Positions 52,833-57,056 of a stretch of 64,000 nucleotides of DNA are shown here, one piece after another. Source of the DNA: Escherichia coli (lineage in GTDB: Bacteria; Pseudomonadota; Gammaproteobacteria; Enterobacterales; Enterobacteriaceae); NCBI RefSeq assembly GCF_022846255.1, contig NZ_AP025682.1; one strand, written 5' to 3'. Numbering within the stretch: position 1 is the stretch's first letter; every line of letters starts with the position of its first letter. The notes below the pieces were generated by a model. That model ran no database searches. It was not told where the DNA came from and was given only the letters and a program-made list of their open reading frames with translations. Position numbers and translations under genes: made by a program.

Positions 52833-52972
52833 ATTGTCATTGCTATACCATAGCTTGGAGAGGATTATTGGAATGGTAGAAGAGTCATTATGAGATAATA
52901 TTATTATCTGAGCTGGCCCCCTGAAATACCAGACAGTAGATGTATCTTAAAATAAGAGATAGGCTTGGATAT

Positions 52973-53368
52973 ATGTCTAACACTAGTTCTAATTTTGAGA
53001 TGGCTGGCGTTTTGTTAGGAAAAGAGGTGCGTAAACGTAAAACACCTCAGGAAAAAATCGCAATTATTCAACAGACTATGGAGCCGGGCATGATGGTGTC
53101 CCACGTGGCGCGTTTGCATGGAATTCAGCCCAGTCTGTTGTTTAAGTGGAAGAAACAATACCAGGAAGGAAGCCTCACTGCTGTGGCTGCCGGTGAAGAC
53201 GTTGTTCCTGCTTCTGAACTGACCGCTGCAATAAAGCAGATTAATCAGCTTCAGCGTTTACTGGGTAAGAAAACCATGGAAGTTGAGATCCTCAAAGAAG
53301 CGGTGGAGTATGCACAATCGCGAAAATGGATAGCGCATGTGCCCTTGTTACCTTCGGACAAGGAATAG
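52973..53368 (+). CDS. IS2-group transposase orfA (InsC-like HTH protein)
   Basis: [50 protein letters not shown]... parallels IS2 InsC. Confidence 0.7.
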
Positions 53369-54207
53369 CCCCGGTAAGCCGTGTTCTGGGCGTGTCACGT
53401 GCGCAGTTAACATTACGGATGAAGGCATCTGATAACAAGCCAGATAAACGGCGCCAGAGGCGCGATGAGGCTGCGGATGCAGAAGTCTTATCGCGCATCC
53501 TGGATATCATTGGCGATATGCCAGCATACGGGTATCGCCGTGTCTGGGCGATACTCAGGCGGCAGTCCCGAAATGAAGGACTACCGTTCGTGAATGCAAA
53601 GCGTGTTTACCGGATAATGAGCGAAAATAGTCTGTTGTTGTTACATGACAAACCATCACGACGGCAGCGGGAACATAAAGGCCGAATATCGGTGAAGGAA
53701 AGCGACCAGCGTTGGTGTTCCGATGGCTTTGAGTTCGGTTGCGATGATGGCGAAAAACTGCGTGTTACGTTCGTCCTGGACTGTTGCGATCGTGAAGCCA
53801 TAGACTGGGTCGCAAGCACGGGAGGTTACGATAAAGCGACAGTGCAGGATGTGATGTTAGGAGCGATAGAAAAACGCTTTGGCGATAAAGTACCGGAACA
53901 GTCCATCCAGTGGCTGACAGATAACGGTTCAGCGTACAGAGCGCATGAAACACGGCAGTTCGCCAGAGAGCTGAATCTGAAGCCCTGCACAACAGCAATC
54001 AGTAGCCCTCAGAGTAATGGAATGGCAGAACGGTTCGTGAAAACGATGAAGGAAGACTACATCGCGTTCATGCCGAAACCGAATGTAAGAACGGCATTGC
54101 ATAACCTTGCAGTGGCGATCGAGCATTACAATGAAAACCATCCGCATAGTGCGTTGGGTTATCGCTCTCCGCGAGAATATCGACGTCAGCGGGTAATGTT
54201 AACTTAA
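53326..54207 (+). CDS. IS2-group transposase orfB (InsD-like DDE domain)
   Basis: 293-aa ORF overlapping orfA in the -1 frame, as in IS3-family programmed frameshifting. Confidence 0.75.
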
Positions 54208-54311
54208 GATACAACCCCTGTCTGGAAATAAGGGGGCAAGAACACCGTCTCAGATCTGTTTTCAATGAAAACAGATCATTCTGGAACTACTCGTCCCAGT
54301 TACTTGAAGCG

Positions 54312-55397
54312 ATGTCCATTCTTCGTCCGAACGAAAATCTTGCAGCAGCTCTCAGCGATGATTCAGAGTTCAGCAATAGCATGCAGTTCAGGTTAATCCT
54401 GGCAAAGACTGTTGATGCAGGAGCCCCGGTTCCAGCGGATCTGGCTCTGACGTGGGTGACAAACCATATTGAATACTCATTACGAACCCCCGCCCGCCGC
54501 TGTGCGAAAGAATTTGCTGCACTATTTAAACGGCGTTACACCCTTAAATACGGTGAAGGGATGGTAGTGAAGCCGAATAAAGCGCGTCTGCGTTTAGATT
54601 ACACGCCTGCAAGTCCCAGTTTGAGAGGTATTCGGCTTCCTGTTCCTGACTTGCCTGATCCAAGTGCATTGAAAGGCCCTGTTCAGAAGCTTATGACTCT
54701 TGCTGATATATGCACAGATGAACTGGATGCTTACAGTCGTTACCTTGGTAGAAAAGGCACTTCAGCAAATGATACCGCTGCAATTTTGTTGCTGCCTTCA
54801 GAAATCGTTAACGAAAGCGCAGATAAATTATTAAGTGCATTCAAACGCTGGGCTGATGACGCGATCCTCAGTAAGGGGGGAGTAGTTTCAGTTGCTGACT
54901 TCTGGTCACACATGAATGCTACCTGTCCGGCAAAGATCAACAAAAAAGAGGCCGACTTGATGCAGGCCTTTGCACAGAAAATGGGGTACTGCCTGGCTCC
55001 TGACCCCTATTACCACCACGTAAAAGCAAATGTCGATGGTGTTCTTGTTTTATTCCCTGCTGGTGAAAGTGGCCGCTTCTCTCCTTCTCCTGAATTTATC
55101 ACAGCTGTATTGACGCTCCGATTAGGTTCGGTAGTCGCCTTGATTGACAATTCTTTCGATCAAGCCGAACAGAAAGTGCTTGAGAATGCCATCAACAACA
55201 ATGTCAGCTTCAGCGATGATGAAAAGCGCTCTCTGCACGCATATTTAACGTGGCAGCTTCATACCCCGGCGAATATGACGGGAATGAAAAGCCGGATTGA
55301 ATTACTCGGTGCAGCGGAAAAATCAGCTGTGGGTAAGGTTATCGTTAGTGTCGCTTGCTCTGACGGCAGAATTACGCCTGCCGAAATCAAACTGTAG
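54312..55397 (+). pseudogene. IS-flanked gene fragment, possibly a TerB-like domain protein, 3'-truncated by the IS911 insertion
   Basis: 361-aa ORF lying exactly between the IS2-group right end and the IS911 left end. Its stop codon TAG lies within the first bases of the IS911 terminus. The TerB-like call rests only on the weak pattern DNSFDQAEQKVLENAINNN...DDEKRSL. Confidence 0.35.
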
Positions 55398-55464
55398 TGG
55401 CACACTGAATTTGGCCACCTGAACAGAGGTGATATGCTCACCTCAGAACAACACAGGTGCTCCA

Positions 55465-55767
55465 ATGAAAAAAAGAAATTTCAGCGCAGAGTTTAAACGC
55501 GAATCCGCTCAACTGGTTGTTGACCAGAACTACACGGTGGCAGATGCTGCCAAAGCTATGGATATCGGCCTTTCCACAATGACAAGATGGGTCAAACAAC
55601 TGCGTGATGAGCGTCAGGGCAAAACACCAAAAGCCTCTCCGATAACACCAGAACAAATCGAAATACGTGAGCTGAGGAAAAAGCTACAACGCATTGAAAT
55701 GGACAATGAAATATTAAAAAAGGCTACCGCGCTCTTGATGTCAGACTCCCTGAACAGTTCTCGATAA
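55465..55767 (+). CDS. IS911 orfA (HTH transposase subunit)
   Basis: [53 protein letters not shown]... recalled as IS911 OrfA. Confidence 0.8.
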
Positions 55768-55793
55768 TCGGGAAACTCAGAGCGCATTATCCT

Positions 55794-56633
55794 GTGGTCA
55801 CACTCTGCCATGTGTTCGGGGTTCATCGCAGCAGCTACAGATACTGGAAAAACCGTCCTGAAAAACCAGACGGCAGACGGGCTGTATTACGCAGTCAGGT
55901 ACTTGAGTTGCATAACATCAGCCATGGTTCTGCCGGGGCAAGAAGCATCGCCACAATGGCACCCCTGAGAGGCTTCAGAATGGGGCGCTGGCTTGCCGGC
56001 AGGCTCATGAAAGAACTGGGACTGGTCAGTTGCCAGCAGCCTGCGCACCGTTATAAACGAGGTGGTCGTGAACATGTCACTATCCCGAATCACCTTGGGC
56101 GGCAGTTCGCAGTGACAGAGCCAAATCAGGTATGGTGCGGCGACGTGACGTACATCTGGACGGGGAAACGTTGGGCATACCTTGCCGTTGTTCTCGACCT
56201 GTTTGCAAGGAAACCGGTAGGTTGGGCAATGTCGTTCTCTCCGGACAGCAGACTGACCATCAAAGCGCTGAAAATGGCCTGGGAAATCCACAGTAAACCA
56301 GCCGGGGTAATGTTCCACAGCGATCAGGGCAGCCACTATACAAGCAGGCAGTTCCGGCAGTTACTGTGGCGTTACCAGATCAAACAGAGTCTGAGTCGAC
56401 GAGGAAATTGCTGGGATAACAGCCCGATGGAGCGCTTCTTCAGGAGTCTGAAAAACGAGTGGATACCGGTGACGGGTTACATGAACTTCAGCGATGCTGC
56501 CCATGAAATAACGGACTATATCGTTGGGTATTACAACGCACTCAGGCCGCACGAATATAACGGTGGGTTGCCACCAAATGAATCGGAAAACCGATACTGG
56601 AAAAACTCTAAAGCGGTGGCCAGTTTTTGTTGA
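55794..56633 (+). CDS. IS911 orfB (DDE transposase catalytic domain; expressed as OrfAB fusion by -1 frameshift)
   Basis: 279-aa ORF with DDE-domain motifs (...[11 protein letters not shown]...[10 protein letters not shown]...[12 protein letters not shown]...). Confidence 0.8.
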
Positions 56634-57056
56634 CCACTACAAATATCATTATATTGGAATAATTATAAAACTGAACAAAATGGTCAATGTAATCTGGTTA
56701 ATTTATAAATATTTACATTGCGTGATGATATTTAATTCCAGTGTTAAGTAATGTCACATGCCTATTATTGGTTACTACTTTGTAGGTGTTTTGGTTCGGC
56801 GTTAATATCATTGGTCATAATCACCTGTGAAAGTTTATTCTTGAAATGTTATAGGTATATTACTTGCAATTAAAAATGAGAAATTTATTATTATTGTGTT
56901 TTGCAAATATAATAATTAAAAATTTATTATAAATTATGATTAGAACTGACAATATAAAAGAATAATAAAACTCAATATGAAAATAATTATCATCTGGTAT
57001 GATACTTTTGCTGTTGATTACAGGAATAAAGTGTCAGAATAATATTGTTATTGGGT

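Follow-up and report, generated by a model that had tools for sequence, protein, structure and literature searches.

The 64,000-nucleotide stretch of Escherichia coli contig NZ_AP025682.1 (assembly GCF_022846255.1) analyzed here, referred to as the window, contains between positions 52909 and 56641 an open reading frame (ORF) of 361 codons enclosed by two insertion sequences (ISs) of the IS3 family. This ORF is an artefact of truncation, a dead internal piece of sngA, the gene for the TerB-domain protein of the Shango defense system. The region as a whole is very probably a non-functional relic of the Shango operon sngABC that is decaying in place in an argW-type E. coli genomic island. The window covers 64 kb of the source genome.

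The anti-phage system Shango consists of the TerB-domain protein SngA, the ATPase SngB and the helicase SngC, and the intact system has been reported to protect E. coli and Pseudomonas aeruginosa modestly against phage (10.1101/2022.05.11.491447; 10.1101/2022.11.11.516204). The protein encoded by the fragment shared 99% identity with the central part of E. coli SngA and matched the PADLOC SngA model, but codons 227-608 of sngA were all that was left of the operon and sngB and sngC were not in the window, which makes the locus a relic and not a system. The features of the region are:

52909-54244, plus strand: complete copy of ISEc48 (IS3 family, IS2 subgroup), 1,336 bp
54245-55392, plus strand: internal fragment of sngA, 1,148 bp, exactly between the two IS elements
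54253-54277, no strand: palindrome of 25 bp within the sngA coding sequence
54312-55397, plus strand: ORF of 361 codons, from internal Met249 to a TAG supplied by the IS
55393-56641, plus strand: complete IS911-like element (IS3 family), 1,249 bp
56642-59139, minus strand: integrase-proximal end of the argW-type genomic island, 99.4% identical to the island of E. coli DA33135

Identity of the fragment

The sequence between the two elements matched 446 of 5,426 complete E. coli genomes, 159 of them at 99% or more, and every match listed carried the annotation TerB N-terminal domain or TerB family protein. At the DNA level the fragment shared 99.6% identity with intact E. coli alleles and corresponded to nucleotides 678-1825 of the 2,310-bp sngA gene of E. 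coli DA33135, which are codons 227-608 of 769. In BLASTP, 377 of 382 residues were identical to residues 227-608 of WP_000424707.1, and the PADLOC SngA model matched the fragment with an E value of 3e-27 over profile positions 160-374 of 528. None of the NCBIfam models matched either SngA or the fragment, and an Rfam scan of 52000-59500 gave no match.

The reading of the sequence alone that preceded this analysis (the sequence-only reading) had proposed a search for TerB-N and TerB-C domains, and its guess of a TerB protein was right. Pfam identified a partial TerB_N domain (profile positions 123-207 of 207, the last 40%) and a partial TerB domain comprising most of that domain. In intact SngA the domains are TerB_N at 98-309, TerB at 519-624 and TerB_C at 644-768, so the TerB_C half of the proposal falls in the part that was lost, and the fragment does not encode a full-length protein with all three domains.

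Both ends of the gene were missing, with 226 codons lost at the N-terminus and 161 at the C-terminus. The reading frame was open from 54246, at the very start of the sequence after ISEc48 and 22 codons before the ATG, and it ran on, free of indels, over 383 codons; Met249, an internal residue of SngA, is encoded by the ATG at 54312. At the other end, the last sense codon, CTG (Leu), is formed by one base of sngA and by TG, the first two bases of the IS911-like element. The TAG at 55395-55397 is made of bases 3-5 of that element, and the native stop lies 161 codons downstream in intact genes. The sequence-only reading had taken the ORF for a gene fragment between two different IS3-family elements with its native C-terminus gone, and both views were borne out. 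It had also described the element as inserted at the stop codon of the gene. The TAG does fall within the terminal bases of the IS, but this is not the native stop, which the IS replaced with one of its own making, and the loss of the N-terminal codons had been overlooked. Full-length homologs ending at the same position, which would have argued for an intact ORF, were not found, as intact SngA has 769 codons.

A fusion of the fragment to the ISEc48 transposase was considered and rejected: orfB of ISEc48 uses a different frame and ends at 54207, and the stretch from the upstream stop to 54312 contains no start codon.

Intact Shango loci

In DA33135, sngA (769 amino acids) is followed after 3 bp by sngB, encoding a BrxC/BrxD-type ATPase (438 amino acids), and sngB is overlapped by sngC, encoding a DEAD/DEAH helicase (732 amino acids). 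Intact loci matched the PADLOC models for SngA, SngB and SngC with E values of 8e-103, 2e-187 and 2e-276, respectively. The same layout was found in SCEC020007 and on a plasmid; the loci with this layout included an island adjoining a tRNA-Phe gene, and the plasmid copy carried an sngA allele that was 81% identical. An identical SngB, indexed in 5,142 blocks, was part of the sngABC layout in all ten places listed. SngA was 769 amino acids long across the intact loci, with 768 in one. By tblastn, no match to other parts of SngA, to SngB, to SngC or to the neighboring proteins was found in the window, and neither an adjacent SngB nor an adjacent SngC accompanies the fragment.

In E. coli 13TMH22 (L014, 5324-8610), sngA was split by a simple insertion of IS1203, and sngB and sngC were intact downstream. 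An IS3-family element inactivated sngA in both strains, but 13TMH22 retains both halves of the gene together with sngB and sngC. The 13TMH22 locus is an independent IS inactivation of Shango and an earlier stage of the same process.

The two insertion sequences

The open frames and the frameshift site of the two elements are:

approximately 53000-53368, plus strand: OrfA of ISEc48, open frame
53326-54207, plus strand: OrfB of ISEc48, open frame, overlapping OrfA
55465-55767, plus strand: orfA of the IS911-like element, an HTH_Tnp_1/rve-type element
55716-55722, plus strand: A6G slippery site AAAAAAG, a -1 frameshift site
ending at 56633, plus strand: orfB of the IS911-like element, open frame

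The left element was 99.6% identical over its full 1,336 bp to copies labeled "IS3-like element ISEc48 family" by the Prokaryotic Genome Annotation Pipeline (PGAP), and its ends, TGAGCTGG...CAAGAACA, were the same base for base in seven reference copies. Its proteins contained the HTH_Tnp_1, rve, rve_3 and HTH_21 domains, terminal inverted repeats were detected, and a programmed frameshift was annotated by PGAP in identical copies. The element thus has the features of the IS3 family, namely two overlapping frames with helix-turn-helix and DDE/rve domains and terminal inverted repeats. The window copy shared 67% DNA identity with a second element in the window, the IS2-like element at 35726-37056, and because that element is itself approximately 95% identical to "IS2 family" copies, ISEc48 was placed in the IS2 subgroup. 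The sequence-only reading had called it a diverged element of the IS2 group. The group was right, but the element is not an anonymous divergent one.

The right element has the ends TGTAGTGG...CCACTACA, with inverted repeats at 55393-55419 and 56615-56641. Many unnamed "IS3 family" copies shared 99.6% identity with it, whereas it was only approximately 91% identical to "IS911 family" copies and 88.7% identical to ISEc52. Its alignment to IS911 copies began at base 4, and both of its ends read TGTAGTGG. By the ISfinder convention, copies of the same IS share approximately 95% identity or more, and since the identity to IS911 is approximately 91% the two are not the same IS. IS911 is 1,250 bp long, and the two elements are alike in length class, in the A6G site, in the HTH_Tnp_1 and rve domains and in the 3-bp duplication of a reference copy, differing in that their DNA is only about 91% identical. 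By these comparisons the right element is a distinct relative of IS911 that is common in E. coli. The name IS911 given to it in the sequence-only reading therefore holds for the kind of element but not for IS911 proper.

Origin of the remnant

The sequence immediately to the right of the IS911-like element (56642-59139) was 99.4% identical to DA33135 sequence whose start lies 10,124 bp downstream of the point where sngA is broken; in DA33135 this sequence extends through a P4-type integrase as far as the initial 15 nt of the tRNA-Arg gene argW. The position and orientation of the fragment relative to the island integrase are those of intact sngA in DA33135. Compared with DA33135, the window has the IS911-like copy in place of the sngA 3' end, sngB, sngC, a gene for a 338-amino-acid hypothetical protein, a gene with an HsdR_N domain, a degenerate IS3-family element and a papB-like remnant. 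To the left of ISEc48 was an unrelated sugar-acid utilization cluster, 86% identical to E. coli homologs. The two features at the integrase end are:

57759-58976, minus strand: P4-type tyrosine integrase, with integrase domains
59125-59139: remnant of 15 nt of the 3' end of the tRNA-Arg gene argW, TGGTGTCCCCTGCAG

Target-site duplications at the IS ends, which the sequence-only reading had recommended looking for, were found at neither element. The flanks of ISEc48 (...TTATC and CCGTC...) share only 1 bp, and those of the IS911-like element are AAC and AAT. With the same method, duplications were found in seven of seven reference copies of ISEc48, in the single reference copy of the IS911-like element, a 3-bp duplication (TTC) within ugd, and in three of four copies of IS2. 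The window copy of ISEc48 has the same sequence and ends as the reference copies but lacks their direct repeats, and it is thus not a simple insertion.

The ancestral island, like that of DA33135, carried sngA (769 codons), sngB and sngC, in that order, upstream of the island integrase. The IS911-like element now joins sngA codon 608 directly to the point 10,124 bp downstream, with three or four further genes removed as well, and ISEc48 now joins codon 227 to the sugar-acid cluster, the 5' end of sngA and the region upstream of it having been removed. Each junction may have arisen by an IS-mediated adjacent deletion, through intramolecular transposition, or by homologous recombination between copies of the same IS, and either route would leave a single IS copy with non-matching flanks. 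A lone IS whose flanks are unrelated is what adjacent deletion or recombination between copies classically leaves behind. The window, with one IS at each junction, no duplication and a defined gap of 10,124 bp, shows nothing unusual by comparison with classical IS-mediated deletion.

Expression and function of the fragment

In a promoter and terminator scan whose overall counts were at the level of shuffled sequence, no sigma-70-like promoter was found on the plus strand between the orfB stop of ISEc48 (54207) and the ATG at 54312, and this ATG has no convincing Shine-Dalgarno sequence. Four substitutions were unique to the fragment in comparison with 13 close intact alleles, and all four were nonsynonymous (R239W, T301I, I421L and D488N). 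Among the intact alleles there were 19 nonsynonymous and 29 synonymous differences (hypergeometric p of approximately 0.03 for the excess in the fragment), which points weakly towards relaxed constraint. Because there is neither a sigma-70-like promoter nor a convincing Shine-Dalgarno sequence, because the four changes are all nonsynonymous, with a weak p value, and because the partner ATPase and helicase are gone, the remnant is probably not expressed as a useful protein and probably provides no defense. The uninterrupted frame reflects the youth of the remnant and not selection.

Alternative explanations

Several points weigh against the interpretation of the region as a dead relic that formed by deletion. 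The frame is open over 383 codons with no indel, as is expected of a young remnant with four derived changes, and it might still be translated, for which read-through from the ISEc48 transposase gene could supply a transcript; the nonsynonymous excess is a matter of four changes. Elsewhere in the genome there could be an independent copy of Shango, or, if the IS elements had caused an inversion or translocation, the missing parts of the operon. In the latter case the rest of sngA, sngB and sngC would survive beside other copies of ISEc48 or the IS911-like element, and two reciprocal junctions would be expected: ...AAAGAGATCTG (or ...TTCAAAGAGATCTG) joined to an ISEc48 end, and an IS911-like end (...CCACTACA, with or without AAC) joined to AGCTTGAGAAG... 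/ AGCTTGAGAAGATTTATAC. The missing target-site duplications fit inversion between inverted IS copies as well as they fit deletion, only 64 kb of the genome was visible, and the window contains another rearrangement, in which the att end of the island abuts a truncated phosphotransferase system (PTS) gene. Against this, the IS911-like element is flanked on its right by the DA33135 sequence downstream of sngABC, in the same orientation, which a simple 10.1-kb deletion explains with no further events, and neither a second copy of either IS nor any other part of the operon occurs within the window. Inversion or translocation is accordingly considered unlikely, and loss by deletion remains the favored explanation.

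It is considerably less likely still that a truncated SngA of residues 249-608, consisting of the central region and most of TerB, is expressed by read-through from ISEc48 and kept for a function such as modulating another Shango system. The open frame would be in keeping with this, as would the complete identity of the IS-fragment-IS unit in eight public contigs, but that identity reflects clonal descent, nothing resembling a promoter or a convincing ribosome-binding site precedes the ATG, the derived substitutions all change the protein, and TerB_N is cut in half and TerB_C lost. The sequence-only reading had suggested that the arrangement could mobilize the fragment, and a composite (pseudo-compound) transposon made of ISEc48, the fragment and the IS911-like element was judged slightly more improbable again. 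The two elements appear complete, each keeps its transposase frames open and is 99.6% identical to many other copies, and they lie in the same orientation. They come, however, from separate subgroups of IS3, with OrfB proteins of 23% identity and dissimilar terminal repeats, unlike the same or cross-recognizing ISs expected at the two ends of a composite transposon. Nor was there a duplication around the 3.7-kb unit or evidence of several contexts: the public contigs that reach a flank share the neighbors seen in the window, except on the right side of one (L002), and the fragment is in the same place relative to the integrase as intact sngA. The claim of mobility was thus not upheld. Least probable of all, to the point of being negligible, is that the ORF represents a complete TerB-family gene of naturally small size, with IS elements merely in its flanks. 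The open frame is all that speaks for it, whereas the match is to residues 227-608 of 769-amino-acid proteins, homology extends on both sides in every intact locus examined, and the stop codon is IS sequence.

Occurrence in public assemblies

In the public collection, 29 indexed blocks contained the exact 361-amino-acid ORF product. Eight public contigs were examined, two of them NCBI isolate drafts, and each carried the fragment together with the IS ends that adjoin it; the IS-fragment-IS unit was 100% identical across them, bar a single base in L006 and a single gap in L007. As the junctions were the same in independent public assemblies, the arrangement is not a misassembly. Either IS junction was absent from complete E. 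coli genomes when queried with a 7-kb sequence, the best places spanning only the integrase flank.

Two metagenome contigs departed from the window outside the unit. L004 differed at 67 positions grouped at the GntP gene's 3' end and in the intergenic region after it (window 49943-50437), with one further difference at 51972 and a unit identical to that of the window. These differences reflect either recombination over a local patch or a mixture of strains in the assembly. In L002 (ERZ927457, 10331-10561), the right end of the IS911-like element was followed only by AAT and then by a different IS3-type end (TGTAGTGGTCAAGTAATACTGGCCAC...), which reflects either another insertion in that strain or a chimeric assembly.

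Significance of the locus

The components of the locus, Shango sngA, ISEc48 and a relative of IS911, are all known, and IS-mediated erosion of a defense island is a textbook process. The locus is a clear example of a Shango operon eroded by insertion sequences inside a mosaic island, and in itself it matters little. For annotation, the 361-amino-acid "hypothetical protein" in public assemblies should be relabeled as an sngA pseudogene fragment, and the source strain should not be scored as Shango-positive at this locus. The duplication length of ISEc48, described below, would be of modest interest to transposition specialists if it has not already been recorded, and it bears on target-site spacing in IS3 and retroviral-integrase-like transpososomes.

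Target-site duplications of ISEc48

Perfect direct repeats of 15 or 16 bp flanked ISEc48 in all seven of the independent insertions that served as reference copies (L015 and L028-L033), and the IS2 controls with a duplication (L034-L036) had one of 5 bp. Duplications in the IS3 family are reported to be 3 bp, with 4 bp in the IS407 subgroup and 5 bp in the IS2 subgroup, and IS481 and IS1202 show discrete classes of 5-6, 15-17 and 24-29 bp (PMC10045372). ISEc48 is related to IS2 at the DNA level (67%) but appears to duplicate 15-16 bp of its target on insertion, in place of the 5 bp of the IS2 subgroup. The excess over 5 bp is approximately 10-11 bp, about one helical turn. By analogy, ISEc48 may be the IS3-family counterpart of the IS481/IS1202 duplication classes, a proposal that is tentative and rather doubtful. 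A literature search found no title or abstract mentioning ISEc48, and its duplication length may already be on record in ISfinder. Beyond showing that the window copy is no simple insertion, the length leaves the verdict on the fragment unchanged.

A palindrome within sngA

The sequence-only reading had noted a perfect inverted repeat with 10-bp arms at 54251-54278. The repeat is real, but the arms are 12 nt long and lie at 54253-54277, separated by a 1-nt spacer (GATCTGTTTTCA-A-TGAAAACAGATC). It had been placed just upstream of the ORF, but it is sngA coding sequence, approximately codons 229-237 (peptide RSVFNENRS), is present in intact alleles and is not an upstream signal. Perfect inverted repeats with 12-nt arms occurred at four distinct loci in the window (five listed registers), while block shuffles gave 0.17 register hits on average. 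As RNA, the palindrome has a folding energy of -14.1 kcal/mol (z = -3.4).

Two groups of alleles were found (L011 and L012), and the palindrome was perfect in both, the groups differing by a symmetric pair of synonymous substitutions (T>G at 54257 and A>C at 54273). In the plasmid allele, which is 81% identical, only eight of the twelve arm positions were kept paired. The symmetric double substitution is marginal by a rough estimate (approximately 0.05) and could be a compensatory change or the outcome of template-switch correction. Template-switch "quasipalindrome correction" can yield such symmetric pairs without selection. A role of the palindrome as an IS-related or regulatory signal was considered and rejected, since in intact alleles it belongs to the sngA coding sequence and in the 81% allele it has decayed, and a function for it is unproven.

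Genomic island context

The window is a mosaic genomic island. It was collinear with the DA33135 island from 18309, at the Ag43 gene, to 37056, the right end of the IS2-like element. Collinearity ends at this element, which indicates an exchange of cargo in the island bounded by IS ends. The IS2-like element, approximately 95% identical to IS2, had no 5-bp duplication (ATGGC versus AACAT). Between it and ISEc48 were 15.9 kb (37057-52908) of cargo that differs from DA33135; it includes the sugar-acid utilization cluster and encodes a tetratricopeptide repeat (TPR) protein, an IclR regulator, a dihydrodipicolinate synthase (DHDPS)-family protein, a UxaA-type dehydratase, PdxA, GntP, a major facilitator superfamily (MFS) transporter and an amidohydrolase.

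At the other end of the island (window 59077-59718), the integrase end abutted a piece from within a PTS ascorbate-type IIC gene (profile positions 100-273 of 415), and the two homologies overlapped by 7 bp (CCTGCAG), which suggests integration or recombination at a secondary site. ARAGORN found no tRNA genes in the window. Further to the left, the window contained a capsule (kps) cluster at 1-14000, 98.5% identical to that of E. coli 2013C-4282, and an Ag43/AIDA-type autotransporter at 18431-21352.

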